Below, in pieces: positions 34 through 14,160 of a stretch of 16,053 nt of DNA (its first letter is position 1; every line of letters starts with the position of its first letter). This stretch comes from a virus. The stretch is from the UHGV virus genome UHGV-0060588; one strand, written 5' to 3'. The translations under genes and the position numbers were made by a program. The notes below the pieces were generated by a model. It was not told where the DNA came from and ran no database searches. It saw nothing but the letters and a program-made list of their open reading frames with translations.

Positions 34-56
34 AGCCCCGCCTTAAAGCGGGGCGC
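34..56. terminator. GC-rich stem-loop GCCCCGC-N6-GCGGGGC, possible terminator or 5'-UTR structure
   Basis: 7-bp perfect stem seen directly. On the minus strand it is followed by TTTACTTATC and then the SD/ATG of the leftward gene; there is no clean U-tract on either strand. Confidence 0.35.
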
Positions 57-319
57 TAGTCCTTATCATTTAAACATAGAAACGGCGTAATCTCAGTAAA
101 CCAGTTACTTTTTACACAAGCAATAGAGTATGGCCCTTCCGAACGCGTCAGCGTAACTACACTCAGGACTTACGTCCAGCTCCGTTACCTGCCGCGCCGC
201 GGTCGCTTGCTCATACTTCACAAGCTCAGGTGGAGCTTATCATATTTTTAGTGAAAAGTCAAATATTCGAATAGTTTATTCCAACATTTACAATTGAGTG
301 GAATAACTGGAATACGTAA

Positions 320-348
320 ATAAATAGTTTGCGCGCACCAACATAATA
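320..348 (+). promoter_or_regulatory. sigma70-type promoter P1 (TTGCGC-N17-TACTAT) for the clamp-like gene
   Basis: -35 TTGCGC at 320-325, 17-nt spacer, -10 TACTAT at 343-348, in an AT-rich leader 37 nt upstream of the ATG. It shares the core AATAGGGTACTATTCA with two minus-strand promoters elsewhere in the window. Confidence 0.5.
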
Positions 349-384
349 GGGTACTATTCAGTTAACTTAAACAGGAGATGAGAA

Positions 385-906
385 ATGGTTACTACAGTAA
401 TTACTTTCCCTGCGTATGTAGGGGCGAAAATATGCAGGGCTAAAAATGATGTTCGCTACTATTTGAACGCTTTTTACATAGACCCTGAAGGATTGATAGT
501 GTCTACGGACGGTCATAGATTGTTCTGCGACAATGTGAAGACCAACGTTGAGAAAGGGACTCTCATAGACATCAAAGGGAGAGAGCCTTCTAAATTTAAC
601 TACGCGGAGGTAAACCACGACAACGGCAGTGTATCTTTCTATGACGATAATCGTGCGCTTATATGTACACTTCCGGTAGATGTTGTAGAAGGAAACTTTC
701 CTGACTGGAGACGCGTGGCGCACATCACACCGGGTGTTGTCGATAGTATAGGGTTCACCCTGCGTTATTTGGCAGACGCGTACAAGATTTCTAAGGCATA
801 CAAAAATGAAATTGCTCGTTTTGATTTCCAGGACCAAACCAGAGGATGCAAAATACAATTTTCAAACACGGCCTTTATGGTGTTAATGCCTGCGCGATTT
901 AAATAA
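385..906 (+). CDS. truncated DNA polymerase III beta sliding-clamp (DnaN) homolog, 173 aa
   Basis: AGGAG SD 8 nt before the ATG and a terminator immediately after the stop. The protein carries DVRYYLN and TDGHRL, then VEGNFPDWRRV, then IGFTLRYL...AFMVLMPARFK, which line up with E. coli DnaN segments QDVRYYLNG...ATDGHRLAV, VDGRFPDYRRV and IGFNVSYVL...AAYVVMPMRL (DnaN recalled from memory). The overlapping minus ORF 367..858 has no such support. Confidence 0.7.
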   Translation: MVTTVITFPAYVGAKICRAKNDVRYYLNAFYIDPEGLIVSTDGHRLFCDNVKTNVEKGTLIDIKGREPSKFNYAEVNHDNGSVSFYDDNRALICTLPVDVVEGNFPDWRRVAHITPGVVDSIGFTLRYLADAYKISKAYKNEIARFDFQDQTRGCKIQFSNTAFMVLMPARFK

Positions 907-2033: not shown

Positions 2034-3110
2034 TTATACCGACCTAAGATATTCAGCAACCCTGTTATCTAACGCCGCCATCTCCTTCAAGGTTAAAGGT
2101 CTACCAAAAGCGTCGACGGATATTACCCGGAATTCCTCTGGGGATATCCCACTATTCCTGAATATAGCACCGCGGGTAGGTCCGAGTGCTTCATCCACGA
2201 ACCATGCCGGTTGCTGTTTCAGGAACTCGTAATAGGTGGTGTCTGCGCTTACCTGCATACCGCCGTCCGCACCCTTAGCCGCGCGTTTTGCACCTTTATC
2301 TAGGAAGTCGAACTCCGAACTGATTACCGGTGCAGTGGTACTTCGACAATTCGGATGGGCGGGGGGCATCGGCCCCTTACCAATTTCCCACGTCATTCCG
2401 TCTCTGGCTCTGCAAATCGTACTGGTACGGCTGTCCAGTGTTGATACCCACTCGTACTTCTCGATGATGTCGTCGTTCTGGCGGTACGTCTCGTTGCGGG
2501 CTTCGTTGGATACGTGGGAAAGCGCGGTGCGAATTACAGTAGTTGCGTTTCGCTCAGAGATGTCAGCCAGCCCACCCGCGCCTACGACATTCTTAACAAT
2601 CTGCCGTGTGGTCTGGCCTTGTACGAAACCCATCTTAACGCCAGTTACCAGGCGCGCTACTTCTGTTTCGCCCCAACCATTCATCAGCTTAGTGAAGTCG
2701 ACAGGCTTGTCGCTTAATGAGAGCGGCTGAAACTCGGCAGCGGCCCACACCTGTTCAGCGGTAGGCGTAACAAATTCCGCGTCTACGTTGGCGGTCAGTG
2801 TCTTTACGTTCCACTCCGCTTCATATGCTGCCAGTTCCTTAAGGTCTTCTGTCAGCTTCGTCTGCCAGCCGCCTGTAAGTCCTGTTAATGCTTCTTCGAG
2901 GTCGCGTAACAATTTATTCAGCCGCGCGGTGCTCCGCCCGTCGTCGCCGAATAACAGCACCTGCCGTTTGATTTCGTCCCGCATCTCCTGAAGGAACGGT
3001 GCGAGGTCTTTCACTTCACCGGATGCGGTGCGTTGCAGCCATATCTGGTGGCTGATTAGAGATGTAAGTAAGCTCATAGCTAAACCCTGTGGTGCTAAAG
3101 TTAATAGCAT
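2034..3110 (-). CDS. phage head morphogenesis protein (SPP1 gp7 / Mu F-like minor head protein), 358 aa
   Basis: C-terminal signature WVSTLDSRTSTICRARDGMTWEIGKGPMPPAHPNCRST (W-x-TLD-x-RT...H-P-N-C-R) characteristic of this family, and position directly downstream of the portal gene. Confidence 0.8.
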   Translation of the reverse strand: MLLTLAPQGLAMSLLTSLISHQIWLQRTASGEVKDLAPFLQEMRDEIKRQVLLFGDDGRSTARLNKLLRDLEEALTGLTGGWQTKLTEDLKELAAYEAEWNVKTLTANVDAEFVTPTAEQVWAAAEFQPLSLSDKPVDFTKLMNGWGETEVARLVTGVKMGFVQGQTTRQIVKNVVGAGGLADISERNATTVIRTALSHVSNEARNETYRQNDDIIEKYEWVSTLDSRTSTICRARDGMTWEIGKGPMPPAHPNCRSTTAPVISSEFDFLDKGAKRAAKGADGGMQVSADTTYYEFLKQQPAWFVDEALGPTRGAIFRNSGISPEEFRVISVDAFGRPLTLKEMAALDNRVAEYLRSV

Positions 3111-3146
3111 ACTATAAGAAAGCCCCTTTCGGGGCTATATGTGAAC

Positions 3147-8466: not shown

Positions 8467-8495
8467 AATATAATAGGGTCTAGGATAATAGTCAA
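8467..8495 (-). promoter_or_regulatory. sigma70-type promoter P4 (TTGACT-N17-TATATT) driving the accessory operon
   Basis: Minus-strand -35 TTGACT (plus 8490-8495), 17-nt spacer, -10 TATATT (plus 8467-8472), between the lysis-operon terminator and the first accessory gene. Confidence 0.5.
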
Positions 8496-8517
8496 CTAGT
8501 CATTACGGAAAATAGAT

Positions 8518-8551: not shown

Positions 8552-8615
8552 AAAACTGGAGAGTAGAGGGATGAAGCAGGAGGTGATTTAAGTATCGTAG
8601 GATTAGTCTCAGGTG

Positions 8616-9101
8616 TCAACCTTTCACCGCGCGCCCGATAGCCTCCGCCTCCTGCCACGGCTTACCGTCGAACAGCGCAAGACGCCCGGCGGTACGGCGA
8701 CGCAGACCGAGTAATGGTTTGCCGTTCTGGTTGATGAACAGCGCCAGCTTAGCCCGCAGTGTCGCAATATCACCAGAACGCAGAGCCTTACCGGTTCCGG
8801 TAGTAGCCGCAATCACACCGGCACCCGCGTTATAGACCAGGTCACACACAGCGTCGAACTGCGCCTGTGTCAGGGAGTGGTGTGCTGCCGCATCAACCGC
8901 AGCTACGGCCTTAGCCATATCGCGATTCAGTAACAGGAGGCCTTGGCCAGGGGTGATGGTCTTACCTTCATACACATGAGGGCCATAGCTTCCGTAGCCT
9001 ATGGTTAAGTATTTTTCCGAAGGTGTCGCGCGGTAGGCGGTCCCGCGGAAATCTTCCCAAGCCGCAGTAAACTTGAGGCCGTTGTCACTCATCGAGCGCA
9101 T
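8616..9101 (-). CDS. endolysin, phage lysozyme (T4/lambda-type glycoside hydrolase family 24), 161 aa
   Basis: Lysozyme signature FTAAWEDFRGTAYRATPSEKYLTIGYGSYGP (catalytic Glu/Asp/Thr context). GGAG SD 8 nt before ATG 9101, which overlaps the HNH gene end. Confidence 0.85.
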   Translation of the reverse strand: MRSMSDNGLKFTAAWEDFRGTAYRATPSEKYLTIGYGSYGPHVYEGKTITPGQGLLLLNRDMAKAVAAVDAAAHHSLTQAQFDAVCDLVYNAGAGVIAATTGTGKALRSGDIATLRAKLALFINQNGKPLLGLRRRTAGRLALFDGKPWQEAEAIGRAVKG

Positions 9102-11904: not shown

Positions 11905-12043
11905 AGTCAATTACCCCGAACTCATTGATGATTTGAGCCTTGTAGAAGTTGCCGTTTGAGGCCAGGTGGTACGCCTGCGTCATAGTCATCTCACGATATG
12001 TTGCAGCGCTGTTTTCGAACTCCATAATCATCAAAGTAACCAT
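11894..12043 (-). CDS. hypothetical protein, 49 aa, first gene downstream of promoter P2 (below the ORF-track cutoff)
   Basis: ATG 12043 directly preceded by GAGAGGAGAGAGAAG (SD). Manual translation: MVTLMIMEFENSAATYREMTMTQAYHLASNGNFYKAQIINEFGVIDYEF. Confidence 0.4.
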   Translation of the reverse strand: MVTLMIMEFENSAATYREMTMTQAYHLASNGNFYKAQIINEFGVIDYEF

Positions 12044-12072
12044 CTTCTCTCTCCTCTCGTTTGTGTAAATGA

Positions 12073-12101
12073 ATAGTAACCTATTCTATCCTAGCGTGCA
12101 A
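12073..12101 (-). promoter_or_regulatory. sigma70-type promoter P2 (TTGCAC-N17-TACTAT)
   Basis: Minus-strand -35 TTGCAC (plus 12096-12101), 17-nt spacer, -10 TACTAT (plus 12073-12078). Shares AATAGGTTACTATTCA and the downstream AAACGAGA with P3. Confidence 0.55.
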
Positions 12102-12175
12102 GTAAATTTTATTGGTGTTTGTATTGTTGCATCTCCTGCAATAGTCGCTTCGATTGTTGCGTTTGGTGAAATAGA

Positions 12176-12215
12176 ACAAAAATGAGAAAAATGATACGCT
12201 GCTGTGTAGCAGCGT
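12176..12215 (-). terminator. rho-independent terminator (ACGCTGCT-GTGT-AGCAGCGT followed by a U-rich tract on the minus strand)
   Basis: 8-bp perfect stem at 12196-12215, with ATCATTTTTCTCATTTTT immediately downstream on the minus strand; sits after the DUF551 gene stop. Confidence 0.65.
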
Positions 12216-12248
12216 AAGTCACTCAGTAAAATCCCAAACTATTGAACA

Positions 12249-12449
12249 TCACACTTCTGACGGCTCTGGTAACGGCATCCAGTGTGTCACGTACTTATCA
12301 TAGTGATTCCAGAACGGCTTTCTCCCGTCATCAGGAACGATGTAATAGTCGTGCTGAACTGCGTTATTCAACGTTTCATACACCAGAAACTCTTTATCAG
12401 TACTTCCGTTACCTGGTAGCATCTCACTACACTTAATCCACTCGCTCAT
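12249..12449 (-). CDS. DUF551 domain protein, 66 aa
   Basis: MSEWIKCSEMLP...VTHWMPLPEPSEV matches the recalled DUF551 signature (W-I-x-x-x-E-x-LP near the N-terminus, VTHWMPLPEPP-like C-terminus). ATGA overlap with the upstream gene. Confidence 0.7.
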   Translation of the reverse strand: MSEWIKCSEMLPGNGSTDKEFLVYETLNNAVQHDYYIVPDDGRKPFWNHYDKYVTHWMPLPEPSEV

Positions 12450-12607
12450 AAATCACCTCTCTTTTCGAATGCACCAGCCATTACATTCGCACCAGCTTTC
12501 CACGCCCGCCACGCGAGACGCGTCTTAACGTTCAGGTACTCTTTCTTTGAACCCTTATTAACGGGCAGACCCTCGACGACGGCCCACCGTTCGAATGCTT
12601 CTCTCAT
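12446..12607 (-). CDS. hypothetical protein, 53 aa (below the ORF-track cutoff)
   Basis: ATG 12607 overlaps the upstream stop (ATGA) and its stop overlaps the DUF551 start (ATGA). Manual translation. Confidence 0.4.
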   Translation of the reverse strand: MREAFERWAVVEGLPVNKGSKKEYLNVKTRLAWRAWKAGANVMAGAFEKRGDL

Positions 12608-12759
12608 TCCAGAACCTCGCATTCGTCCCGATACACGAACAATAATGACCCTTTGTACTCAATCATAAAACCATAATGGTTGCTGCTGAACGCCATAAAA
12701 ACATCACCTACCGAGATACCGAAATCGATAAGCCCGCGGTCAGTTATTCGAATTCTCAT
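12604..12759 (-). CDS. hypothetical protein, 51 aa (below the ORF-track cutoff)
   Basis: ATG 12759 preceded by GGGGG (5-nt spacer); its stop overlaps the next start (ATGA). Manual translation. Confidence 0.4.
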   Translation of the reverse strand: MRIRITDRGLIDFGISVGDVFMAFSSNHYGFMIEYKGSLLFVYRDECEVLE

Positions 12760-12819
12760 ACCAACCCCCACAACGCGTGCACCGCATAAACGGCGCTGAC
12801 AATTAAAATAAACGGATAG

Positions 12820-13077
12820 TTATTCACGGCAACCTCCCTCAGAGTCGTCGGCACGAGCATCATGATTCGATGCCGTTCTGAATGTTACCGCTGGTGTGCC
12901 CAGGACATTCACGGTAAAGGCTTCACCATGTGATTGCTCTAAATCCCACTCATCACCTTCCTCGTCTAAAACGTAGAGACGACCGTCGTAGTGTACTTTC
13001 AACGAATACTCGTTGCCTTTTATAAACCAACCGCCCATTTCTGCTTTAGACTCAATACAAATTAATTCTTCCATCAC
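12820..13077 (-). CDS. hypothetical protein, 85 aa
   Basis: Track ORF; its start overlaps the stop of the upstream gene. No recognisable motif. Confidence 0.5.
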   Translation of the reverse strand: MMEELICIESKAEMGGWFIKGNEYSLKVHYDGRLYVLDEEGDEWDLEQSHGEAFTVNVLGTPAVTFRTASNHDARADDSEGGCRE

Positions 13078-13274
13078 TTCGCCCCTTTGAATTTAAAATT
13101 GTTGCCTATGAGCTTCATTTCATACTCTCGGTAATACGCCGTGGAACTTAACCCGTGCTCCCTGAGTAAGCTAACGACATAAGAACTTCGGTACACTGTC
13201 GATTTCTTTTCAATAATACCTAAGCTACCGTACATCGTTTTCACCAACTGACCCTTCCTAAACATAACCCTCAC
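13074..13274 (-). CDS. hypothetical protein, about 63-66 aa, first gene downstream of promoter P3
   Basis: Track ORF starts at GTG 13274; an in-frame ATG at 13265 follows GAGGG. Lys-rich. Confidence 0.45.
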   Translation of the reverse strand: MRVMFRKGQLVKTMYGSLGIIEKKSTVYRSSYVVSLLREHGLSSTAYYREYEMKLIGNNFKFKGAK

Positions 13275-13299
13275 TCATCTGTCTCGTTTCGATAAGTGA

Positions 13300-13328
13300 A
13301 TAGTATCCTATTATGTTGGGGTGTGCAA
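13300..13328 (-). promoter_or_regulatory. sigma70-type promoter P3 (TTGCAC-N17-TACTAT)
   Basis: Minus-strand -35 TTGCAC (plus 13323-13328), 17-nt spacer, -10 TACTAT (plus 13300-13305). Near-identical core to P1 and P2. Confidence 0.55.
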
Positions 13329-13400
13329 GAAAATAGTTACGTTGCCGTTGTGATTCTTCAGGTAGGGTTGTGCCTTTATTCTTATTACTTGGTAACTAAA

Positions 13401-13421
13401 GGGCAGGCCCTAAGCCTGCCC
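13401..13421. other. GC-rich hairpin GGGCAGGC-CCTAA-GCCTGCCC in the divergent intergenic region
   Basis: 8-bp perfect stem with 5-nt loop and A/T-rich flanks on both sides; lies upstream of P3, so it is not an obvious terminator of any annotated gene. Confidence 0.35.
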
Positions 13422-13575
13422 ACTAATCGTTACATTTTTACGGTTGCGAATCTACGGCACATTAAGAAAATCAGATACTTAAGAGATATGCTGCCGATGA
13501 GAATAGAGCTTGCCCAGGGCAACCGGAGATACTAAGGAAGGAAAGTTACAATAATTCTAATGTTCAGTAAGCCTG

Positions 13576-13609
13576 TGTTTAACCCTTTGCTTGACGCACG
13601 GGTTAAACA
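13576..13609. promoter_or_regulatory. 10-bp perfect inverted repeat TGTTTAACCC-N14-GGGTTAAACA (candidate operator)
   Basis: Exact reverse-complement arms at 13576-13585 and 13600-13609 with TTGACG in the spacer, in the 450-bp divergent intergenic region upstream of the plus-strand HTH gene. Confidence 0.4.
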
Positions 13610-13698
13610 TTCTTACAAGGTGAACAAGAATAAAAGTAACTAAGATATAGAAGCACCTTAAACGAAGATTTCCATAATGTCAATAGGTGCGATTATGT

Positions 13699-13727
13699 TT
13701 GATTTCCCATTATTCGCAATGTATACT
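13699..13727 (+). promoter_or_regulatory. candidate sigma70 promoter (TTGATT-N17-TATACT) for the rightward operon
   Basis: -35 at 13699-13704 and -10 at 13722-13727, about 33 nt upstream of ATG 13760. Does not carry the AATAGG-TACTATTCA core of P1-P3. Confidence 0.4.
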
Positions 13728-13759
13728 TGGTTTCGTTGACTGATAATGAGGGTTTGAGA

Positions 13760-13930
13760 ATGACACAGAATGAGGTAGCTGAGCGTATTGGGGTTACTCG
13801 CCGCACGCTTAATAACTGGTTAAAGAGTGGGAAGTTCCCGGATTGTTGTATCCGCATTATGGGCCGCCGCCAGCCCGGTACGTTTGACCCAGAGAAAGTG
13901 GAAGCGTGGATTAAGGAGAACGTTAAATGA
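13760..13930 (+). CDS. small HTH DNA-binding regulator (AlpA/excisionase-like), 56 aa from ATG 13760
   Basis: MTQNEVAERIGVTRRTLNNWLKSGKFP matches the AlpA/Xis-type HTH pattern. GAGGG SD 7 nt before ATG 13760 (the track starts at 13727). Confidence 0.6.
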   Translation: MTQNEVAERIGVTRRTLNNWLKSGKFPDCCIRIMGRRQPGTFDPEKVEAWIKENVK

Positions 13931-14160
13931 CCGAGTTCCAGTCACGCGTATTTACGGCGGTCGTTTCGTTAACCCGCAAAAAAGGGTCGTGCAGCGTTAT
14001 GGACTTGCGCCGTAGTTATTTTAAGTACTATAGTTCCGCCATTATTGAAGGGTCGTTGAAGGTACTGGTTAAATCGGGTGTCGTGAAAAACGTTGGTGGG
14101 AAATATGGTGCTGTTGCTGAAGTTCGCGGAATGGCTGCTACTTTAGAAGACCTGGAATAA
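13927..14160 (+). CDS. hypothetical protein, 77 aa
   Basis: ATG overlaps the upstream stop (ATGA). Possible winged-helix-like segment, not assignable. Confidence 0.5.
   Translation: MTEFQSRVFTAVVSLTRKKGSCSVMDLRRSYFKYYSSAIIEGSLKVLVKSGVVKNVGGKYGAVAEVRGMAATLEDLE

Follow-up and report, generated by a model that had tools for sequence, protein, structure and literature searches.

Predicted promoters and palindromic elements in the window

The window, a stretch of 16,053 nucleotides from the virus genome UHGV-0060588, belongs to a Kagunavirus (Guernseyvirinae) phage of E. coli. It contains three predicted promoters of similar build, designated P1, P2 and P3, each overlapped by a candidate operator, together with several related elements:

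329-357, plus strand: P1, class A promoter; -35 TTGCGC (329-334), 17-nt spacer, -10 TACTAT (352-357)
343-360: candidate operator at P1, ATAATAG-GGTA-CTATTCA, exact match; 14-bp core at 345-358
3103-3116, minus strand: palindrome TATAGTATGCTATT, one mismatch, between the portal and head-morphogenesis genes
8467-8500, minus strand: P4; -35 TTGACT (8495-8490), 17-nt spacer, -10 TATATT (8472-8467); downstream of a terminator at 8551-8518
8500-8487, minus strand: P4 palindrome ACTAGTTGACTATT, one mismatch, over the -35 hexamer
12055-12062, minus strand: leader element AAACGAGA, 7 nt past the P2 core
12070-12087, minus strand: candidate operator at P2, AGAATAG-GTTA-CTATTCA; core at 12072-12085
12073-12101, minus strand: P2, class A promoter; -35 TTGCAC (12101-12096), 17-nt spacer, -10 TACTAT (12078-12073)
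13282-13289, minus strand: leader element AAACGAGA, 7 nt past the P3 core
13297-13314, minus strand: candidate operator at P3, ATAATAG-GATA-CTATTCA; core at 13299-13312
13300-13328, minus strand: P3, class A promoter; -35 TTGCAC (13328-13323), 17-nt spacer, -10 TACTAT (13305-13300)
13760-13930, plus strand: gene for a 56-aa HTH_17 (excisionase/MerR-like) protein; Pfam HTH_17, E 3.3e-7

The -35 hexamers match TTGACA at three of six positions in P1 and at four of six in P2 and P3, with TTG kept. The spacer measures 17 nt in all three promoters, and TACTAT represents a 4/6 match to the -10 hexamer, including T-12, A-11 and T-7. With totals of 7-8 matches out of 12, P1-P3 fall below the promoter-scan cut-off of 9/12 and are consequently absent from the scan listing. 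The hexamers and spacing of P2 and P3 were re-read in the sequence exactly as they had been given in the initial annotation. For P1, the sequence (TTGCGC-N17-TACTAT on the plus strand) was likewise correct, but its coordinates were 9 nt off, the promoter lying at 329-357 and not at 320-348. A backward reading of the three sites was rejected, as it offers no usable -35 hexamer.

P1 lies 27 nt upstream of the ATG at 385 and serves the ORF at 385-906, which matches phrog_3007 (annotated as a RusA-like resolvase; E 3.6e-36). P2, situated 29 nt upstream of the ATG at 12043, serves the ORF at 12043-11894 and the genes downstream of it; this first ORF matches DUF7170 (E 2.9e-18). A terminator-like hairpin is found upstream of P2 at 12216-12195. 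P3 is located 34 nt upstream of the ATG at 13265 and serves the ORF at 13265-13074 and four more small ORFs, as far as that terminator; it is itself preceded by a terminator-like hairpin at 13421-13401. The genes downstream of the motif promoters are small early genes and DNA-metabolism genes, not structural ones, and the temporal class of promoters that had been suggested would fit the genes served. Next to P3, at 13393-13683, there is also a conserved non-coding unit of about 255 nt with the appearance of a structured RNA, putatively encoded on the minus strand; scanning the window against Rfam and for tRNAs gave no hits.

The three promoters had been described as sharing an extended core beyond the hexamers, and this description holds: the 16-mer AATAGGNTACTATTCA is found exactly at P1 (345-360, plus strand), P2 (12070-12085, minus strand) and P3 (13297-13312, minus strand). 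These are its only matches in the window, even when up to two mismatches are allowed, against 0.03 expected by chance, and a count of three was reached in none of 200 shuffles. All copies are intergenic, each within a TTGC(G/A)C-N17-TACTAT promoter that points towards the gene following it. What is conserved is an imperfect palindrome, (T/A)(G/T)AATAG-N4-CTATT, whose long form, also imperfect, spans 18 bp as (T/A)(G/T)AATAG-N4-CTATT(C/A)(A/T). The 14-bp palindrome with at most one mismatch occurs five times in the window (0.39 expected).

The downstream element attributed to both P2 and P3 is real, since AAACGAGA occurs in the window only twice and both times 7 nt past the core. The count is not significant, as at least two copies were obtained in 26 of 200 shuffles; the identical offset is the notable part. 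Related AACGAGA elements are present after P4 (8454-8448) and after one class B promoter (defined below) of the relative L001, and an element of this type also follows the P3-like promoter of Serratia phage Tsm2.

P4 and the rightward promoter at 13699-13727 had been set apart as lacking the core. This is correct for the rightward promoter, which is motif-free. In P4 the 16-mer is indeed absent, but a one-mismatch copy of the inner palindrome, ACTAGTTGACTATT, is present over the -35 hexamer. The P4 site is kept in the relatives L001, L003 and L004, and in the Jerseyvirus L002 an imperfect half is found on the other side. The palindrome TATAGTATGCTATT directly follows a hairpin at 3136-3121, and there is no convincing -35 hexamer beside it.

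Distribution and geometry of the palindrome in related phages

In four complete relatives (L001-L004), the 14-bp palindrome occurs 10-12 times per genome, as compared with about 1.2 expected, and the set of sites is common to Kagunavirus and Salmonella Jerseyvirus phages. An unbiased scan of all 1024 palindromes of the 5-N4-5 type places AATAG at rank 1 in Kagunavirus, Jerseyvirus and two further lineages. A motif search had been proposed in the initial annotation, with random positions inside coding regions as the refuting case. The copies in the window are intergenic, and 10 of the 12 sites in L001 fall in annotated intergenic gaps, which account for about 10% of its length; a further site is found 52 nt upstream of the gene that follows.

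Two classes of promoters were assigned by pattern and downstream gene; orientation by hexamer score is too noisy. In class A, which comprises P1-P3 and the L001 promoters 31275 and 11302, the palindrome is centred near -12.5, and at P1 it overlaps the -10 hexamer. Its right half is here largely the -10 hexamer itself, and only the left half AATAG (-19 to -15) is free of sigma-70 constraints. It could be argued that the core is merely a well-tuned sigma-70 promoter, with G-14, TACTAT and a fixed discriminator/start region, whose copies are alike through descent and homogenisation by recombination. In class A the conserved centre is explained by G-14, T-12 and A-11, CTATT overlapping the -10 hexamer, and in some genomes a stretch of 32 nt is the same or almost the same in P1, P3 and the L001 31275 promoter. 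The spacer CCCCAA(C/T)AT is common to P1, P3 and a third promoter, and the spacer variants gcgcgc/gcacac and caacat/caatat form a mosaic among copies and genomes, so that part of the similarity may stem from copying between promoters.

This explanation, with no further factor at work, is rather unlikely. The left half-site sits in the spacer between the hexamers, which is not read by sigma-70. In class B (L001 11346, 14368 and 18929; TTGAC(A/G)-N17-TATAGT), the same palindrome is reversed and lies 6 bp further upstream than in class A, inside the spacer, with its centre near -18.5. In Jerseyvirus, the promoter orthologous to L001 31275 carries it near -15.5, a 3-bp slide between the two genera which leaves the element intact. 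Taken over all sites, the centres lie near -12.5, -15.5, -18.5 and -33.5, in both orientations and overlapping core promoter elements. Moreover, two class B promoters of Jerseyvirus contain the asymmetric 14-mer AATAGAGTACGATT in opposing directions, at equal distance to the -35 and -10 hexamers. The palindrome both flips and slides, which would not be expected if sigma recognised it in a fixed geometry.

The pattern of conservation points in the same direction. Logos built from palindrome-selected sites are biased by that selection and were replaced by orthologs selected through an anchor. About 50 loci of the promoter of the single-strand DNA-binding protein (SSB) gene were chosen via the downstream anchor and not via the motif. 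In these orthologs AATAG and CTATT are kept, whereas the central 4 nt vary (TTAG, TTGG, CAAA, CAAG, TAAG, TTAA, TACT, TAGA), as do the 2-3 nt adjoining the -35 hexamer, 1-nt insertions included. Such retention of the half-sites with a drifting centre and flanks speaks against a tuned promoter sequence alone.

Two readings of the extended core had been offered, namely a host sigma factor acting with a phage cofactor or a shared operator. The former finds no specific support, the hexamers and their spacing being ordinary for sigma-70. The latter is favoured by the palindromic form, the presence of both orientations and of several positions relative to the -10 hexamer, and the constancy of the half-sites around a variable centre.

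A probable shared operator and its candidate reader

With moderate confidence, P1-P3 can be interpreted from these features as host sigma-70 promoters with a common operator, to which a dimeric phage repressor would bind. They would be ordinary promoters of the host sigma-70 RNA polymerase, each heading its own transcription unit, and the palindrome would be a distinct element superimposed on the core promoter at some ten promoters per genome. A helix-turn-helix protein of the phage would bind the palindrome as a dimer and block RNA polymerase, and the early and DNA-metabolism promoters would be turned down together once the repressor has accumulated.

The most likely candidate for binding the palindrome, as judged from sequence comparison, is a 71-aa Cro-like phage protein, which would be that repressor. 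Its gene lies just past the right-hand edge of the window, following the helicase-primase gene, and occupies 11056-11271 in the relative L001. The protein matches Pfam HTH_3 (E 1e-11), and the closest solved structure is that of phage 434 Cro, also of 71 aa, with an end-to-end alignment (E 4e-6). 434 Cro binds 14-bp dyad operators in which the outer bases are conserved and the centre is variable. Genes for the Cro-like protein are present in 556 phage records, those of the Kagunavirus and Jerseyvirus groups among them; window-related DNA was found in 471 records. The promoter of the Cro-like gene carries a weakened site, with AATAT for AATAG, which suggests autoregulation. The gene is divergent from a class B promoter whose operator is 44 bp from this weakened site.

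Of the two HTH proteins compared, the Cro-like protein and HTH_17, only the former is present in every motif-positive lineage sampled. In a lineage whose recognition helix starts with TQ and not SQ, AATAC-N4-GTATT is found at the same promoter positions. Two lineages, TS6 and L105, have the Cro-like protein and lack the strict motif; in TS6 no replacement motif emerged from a search with exact k-mers, and only 2-mismatch versions are present at its promoters. The distant Cro-like homologs in L083-L085 were set aside as belonging to cI/cro-type switch regions of unrelated phages. One perfect 5-N4-5 palindrome, AACACAAACGTGTT, lies upstream of the Cro-like gene in L083, a weak parallel.

A counterpoint to early shut-off is that both putative late promoters carry a near-palindrome over the -35 hexamer, to which a simple shut-off of early genes does not fit. 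A broader and more tentative possibility is that the Cro-like protein, in a virulent phage without a lysogeny module, may act as a single global governor with an operator at nearly every promoter. It would then control when and how strongly the entire transcription programme runs, the late-promoter near-sites included, and operator and recognition helix would have diverged together across the Guernseyvirinae (AATAG with SQ, AATAC with TQ).

A host protein of E. coli and Salmonella, in place of a phage protein, is an improbable reader of the palindrome. The recognition helices of the Cro-like proteins differ between Kagunavirus (SQGAINQ) and Jerseyvirus (SQSLITH), and AATAG is nevertheless common to these two groups with related hosts, as a host reader would predict. 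To our knowledge, the palindrome matches no enterobacterial operator consensus (Fur, ArgR, MetR, TrpR, CRP, FNR). The replacement of AATAG by AATAC at the same promoter positions in a related lineage looks instead like co-divergence with a phage-encoded reader.

A further proposal, in which the sites load the HTH_17 protein onto RNA polymerase as an antiterminator of the Q/AlpA type able to pass many terminators, has very little probability. The rightward helicase-primase operon, which is early and motif-free, begins with the HTH_17 gene; the HTH_17 protein is 85-89% identical between Kagunavirus and Jerseyvirus, both with AATAG, and hairpin terminators are frequent between the transcription units. 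The binding element of AlpA is likewise situated between the -35 and -10 hexamers (PMC9371919). However, HTH_17 is absent from the motif-positive Serratia phage Tsm2 and from lineages L093-L096. In AlpA, contact residues are numbered up to 142, the N-terminal ring is placed in the RNA exit channel, and one protomer is bound to an asymmetric 6-bp element beside a sigma-dependent pause (PMC9371919). The HTH_17 protein has only 56 aa, and the site is palindromic with variable positions. HTH_17 was therefore rejected as the motif reader, on account of the motif-positive lineages without it and of a size and binding mode unlike those of AlpA. A scan of genome contigs for HTH_17 retrieved three phage-like contigs only.

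Earlier reports and comparison with known systems

The motif is already known from Kagunavirus genome papers, and the finding is real but ordinary. PHIRE, a phage promoter-finding program, lists it in phages fBC-Eco01 (PMC9825357) and VB_EcoS-Golestan (PMC7203180), with seven sites per paper, TAATAGGATACTATTCACTT and GAATAGGCTACTATTCATTT among them; the consensus given for fBC-Eco01, tgAATAGTa-ccTATTat-T, corresponds in reverse complement to the core in the initial annotation. The TATAGTATGCTATT site is PHIRE hit no. 1 in Golestan (PMC7203180). In the passages and tables consulted, neither paper remarks on the dyad symmetry, on the occurrence of both orientations or on any connection with the Cro-like gene. 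For fBC-Eco01, PMC9825357 lists the sites as phage-specific promoters and assigns them to a phage RNA polymerase. This reading is refuted in practice because the enzyme is absent, no RNA polymerase gene being annotated in the records of L001-L004 (complete relatives of 42-45 kb); in addition, every site is flanked by sigma-70-type -35 and -10 hexamers at 17-nt spacing, the motif occurs in both orientations relative to the served gene, and several of these places carry phiSITE promoter predictions in the GenBank record of Jerseyvirus PVP-SE2.

Phages of Kagunavirus and Jerseyvirus are isolated widely for use in therapy and food safety, and a literature search found no transcription-start, binding or expression studies of Guernseyvirinae phages. 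The interpretation as sigma-70 promoters with one shared operator would correct the published view that the sites serve a phage RNA polymerase. It offers a simple model of how early genes may be shut off, in which the candidate protein is named and the sites are defined, in what would otherwise be an ordinary type of phage regulon.

The closest parallel is with phage 434 Cro and the lambdoid OR/OL operators. The candidate protein has 71 aa and finds in 434 Cro its best match of solved structure; the operators are 14-bp dyads, constant in their outer bases and variable at the centre, which overlap the core promoter, and the promoter of the regulator itself carries a site. In contrast to the tripartite lambdoid OR/OL, there is here one site per promoter, the closest pair being 44 bp apart in the divergent region, and some ten promoters spread round the genome are involved. 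The half-site is AATAG and not ACAA as in 434, and binding is here predicted. No integrase was found in the annotated relatives examined, and neither a CI partner nor a lysogeny module was seen in the annotations of L001-L004.

A second likeness, to morons or promoter-terminator cassettes and the T4-type PeSL (promoter-early stem-loop), concerns the spread of the copies and not the function of the palindrome. P1 is located between hairpins inside the late gene block and points in the opposite direction, and both P2 and P3 are preceded by a terminator hairpin. The cargo of P1 differs by relative, the orthologous promoter preceding a different gene in related phages.

Gene layout and the shared promoter core

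DNA searches assign the window to Kagunavirus (Guernseyvirinae), siphoviruses of E. coli, with 88-95% identity to many isolates; the 471 related records are mostly Kagunavirus and Salmonella Jerseyvirus phages. The gene layout was read by mapping onto an annotated relative, PQ429079.1 (L001):

Left end: spanin gene, its start
385-906, plus: gene
Next, minus: head, portal and terminase genes
Next: lysis genes
Next, minus: small early genes, two blocks
Between these blocks and the rightward operon: non-coding region, 500 nt
Right end: rightward operon of a 56-aa HTH protein, a 77-aa protein and the helicase-primase gene, the last cut off by the window end

The exact 16-mer AATAGGNTACTATTCA is found at 345-360 (plus), 12070-12085 (minus) and 13297-13312 (minus), three copies against 0.03 expected by chance, which bears out the core attributed in the initial annotation to promoters P1, P2 and P3. 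No further copy occurs in the window with up to two mismatches allowed. All three cores sit within TTGC(G/A)C-N17-TACTAT, aimed at a gene starting 27-34 nt downstream. P2 (12073-12101) and P3 (13300-13328) had been correctly placed, P1 belongs 9 nt further right, at 329-357, and the downstream element AAACGAGA ascribed to P2 and P3 is present at both, 7 nt past the core, and confined to them in the window. An intrinsic-terminator-like hairpin lies ~70-95 nt upstream of P2 and of P3.

The core contains the palindrome AATAG-N4-CTATT, a putative operator. With up to one mismatch, it occurs five times in the window versus 0.39 expected; beyond P1-P3, one copy is at the leftward promoter P4 and one between the portal and head-morphogenesis genes. 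Three Kagunavirus genomes and Jerseyvirus PVP-SE2 contain 10-12 copies each versus ~1.2 expected, and L001 has eight copies of the 16-mer (up to two mismatches). Of the 12 palindromes of L001, 10 fall in annotated gaps, which cover about a tenth of the genome; of the other two, one precedes the next gene by 52 nt and one is intragenic.

The motif is already on record, since PHIRE, a phage promoter-finding program, lists seven of these sites each in fBC-Eco01 (PMC9825357) and Golestan (PMC7203180), according to the accessible portions of both papers. The consensus given for fBC-Eco01 reads as the reverse complement of the core first annotated here, and PMC9825357 attributes the sites to a phage-encoded RNA polymerase; the annotations of four complete relatives list no gene for one. 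The GenBank record of PVP-SE2 has phiSITE-predicted promoters at several of the same places, and no published account of transcript mapping was found for Guernseyvirinae. That the motif is a dyad, and that it is linked with a Cro-like gene, we infer from sequence; neither point is mentioned in those portions of the two papers.

Geometry of the palindrome

Judged by comparison among relatives, the conserved unit is the palindrome and not a sigma element. Two promoter types are distinguished by its orientation and position. Class A takes in P1-P3 and two further promoters, one for an operon that runs backwards inside the tail genes and one for a small HTH gene; the centre of the palindrome is near -12.5 in these, and its right half forms part of TACTAT. 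Class B comprises three promoters in relatives, serving the operons for recombination, SSB/DNA polymerase and helicase, with near-consensus hexamers TTGAC(A/G)-N17-TATAGT. Here the element is reversed, TGAATAG-N4-CTATTAT, and centred near -18.5, so that its left half lies in the spacer, unread by sigma-70. In Jerseyvirus, one class A promoter has an ortholog in which the element is moved by 3 bp and the -10 hexamer is TATTAT. Two class B promoters there both contain the asymmetric 14-mer AATAGAGTACGATT, oppositely oriented and equally far from the hexamers. Orthologs of the SSB promoter, selected by a downstream anchor and not by the motif, keep both half-sites over ~50 loci; at least eight variants of the central four bases occur among them, and the positions beside the -35 hexamer are variable, with insertions. 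AATAG ranks first of all 1024 possible 5-N4-5 palindromes in four lineages. An element that is found reversed and shifted, with only its outer two arms conserved, has the behaviour expected of a site bound by a symmetric dimer.

Other elements recur around these promoters. The leader element (A)AACGAGA lies 10-12 nt past the -10 hexamer of P2, P3 and P4 (12055-12062, 13282-13289, 8448-8454); in relatives it also follows a class B promoter, and in Serratia phage Tsm2 the P3-like promoter. It continues into a Shine-Dalgarno sequence at P2, not at P3. Upstream of the palindrome, the spacer (A/G)C(A/C)CCAA(C/T)AT is common to P1 (335-344), P3 (13313-13322) and the backward tail-gene promoter, with orthologs in L001 and two further complete Kagunavirus genomes, L003 and L004. 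The mosaic distribution of its variants over copies and genomes suggests copying between promoters. The palindrome between the portal and head-morphogenesis genes (3103-3116, one mismatch) directly follows a hairpin (3136..3121), has no convincing promoter, is kept in relatives and is listed by PHIRE in Golestan.

Candidate binding protein and proposed function

Two small HTH proteins were considered as binders. The 56-aa HTH_17 protein (13760-13930), 85-89% identical between Kagunavirus and Jerseyvirus, is missing from Tsm2 and four metagenomic lineages whose promoters still have the motif, and is therefore ruled out as a required binder. The gene of the 71-aa HTH_3 protein lies just past the helicase-primase gene, ~450 nt beyond the window end. 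Genes for this protein are present in 556 phage records, Kagunavirus and Jerseyvirus groups among them, and several records of these groups name it cro or repressor; its best solved-structure match is phage 434 Cro, which is equally long and aligns with it over the full length. The promoter of its gene belongs to class A, with the left half of the site weakened, and a divergent class B promoter has its operator 44 bp from that site. The lineage comparison is consistent with this protein as the binder, but is not clean. Recognition helices starting with SQ accompany AATAG in Kagunavirus, Jerseyvirus and Tsm2, and mixed AATAG/AATAC sites in lineages L093-L095; of the two TQ lineages, L096 has AATAC-N4-GTATT and TS6 only two-mismatch versions at the same promoters, and the SQ lineage L105 has no motif within the 20 kb examined.

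A palindrome over the -10 hexamer or spacer should shut out RNA polymerase, and for this reason we read the Cro-like protein as a candidate repressor of the 434/lambda Cro type. Promoters with the site serve small early, replication and recombination genes; it is absent from the promoter of the neighbouring non-coding unit and from the rightward helicase-primase promoter (13699-13727), which had indeed been described as lacking the core. This distribution fits a coordinated turn-down, in which early and middle transcription would be reduced together, with a timing that we infer. Near-palindromes that lie over the -35 hexamers of P4 (8495..8467) and, less clearly, of a promoter-like site preceding the spanin gene do not fit the model:

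8487-8500: near-palindrome ACTAGTTGACTATT of P4, likewise a putative late promoter, one mismatch, over the -35 hexamer
254-267: spanin-side near-palindrome AATATTTGACTTTT, two mismatches, over the -35 hexamer
TTGACT at 262..257, N17, TAAGCT: promoter-like site before the spanin gene, putative late promoter

P4 had also been said to lack the core, which holds in that it is not among the AATAGGNTACTATTCA matches and fails in that it has this near-palindrome. The Jerseyvirus P4 site has its imperfect half on the opposite side. A further promoter-like site without a palindrome (8591-8619, minus; TTGACA-N17-GATACT, 10/12) is found at the endolysin gene's 3' end, immediately ahead of a terminator and P4, and begins with TTGACACCTGA, as the class B SSB promoter does. 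On the spanin side, ~200 nt (within 35-267, minus) separate the promoter-like site 262..234 from a strong hairpin terminator (54..35) that adjoins the spanin start codon upstream; this stretch may yield a short transcript or regulated leader.

The non-coding unit and the P1 cargo

Some of the DNA best conserved between Kagunavirus and Jerseyvirus is the non-coding stretch from P3 to the rightward operon; for several Salmonella phage records, the match to the window is limited to ~13287-14073. The stretch holds a unit with ~80% identity between the two genera:

13393-13683, minus: unit, with no conserved ORF over ~255 nt
13683..13655, minus: conserved promoter TTGACA-N17-TAAG(G/A/T)T (TAAGGT in the window)
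13421..13401, minus: terminator closing the unit

One hairpin of the unit exists in at least four sequence versions, all apparently able to pair, and RNAalifold identifies compensatory changes in two further pairs; no Rfam match was obtained for the unit. It looks like a candidate structured RNA or leader. It may instead be an origin-like DNA element, with five occurrences of GTAAC/GTTAC.

At P1, the promoter is conserved and the cargo is not (window 329-906; L003 4113-4356; L004 4930-5173): the window and L001 have a 173-aa protein of phrog_3007 there, and other Kagunavirus genomes one of 67 aa. The P1 unit opposes the direction of the neighbouring late genes and is closed by a two-way terminator at 911-931, resembling a moron slot.
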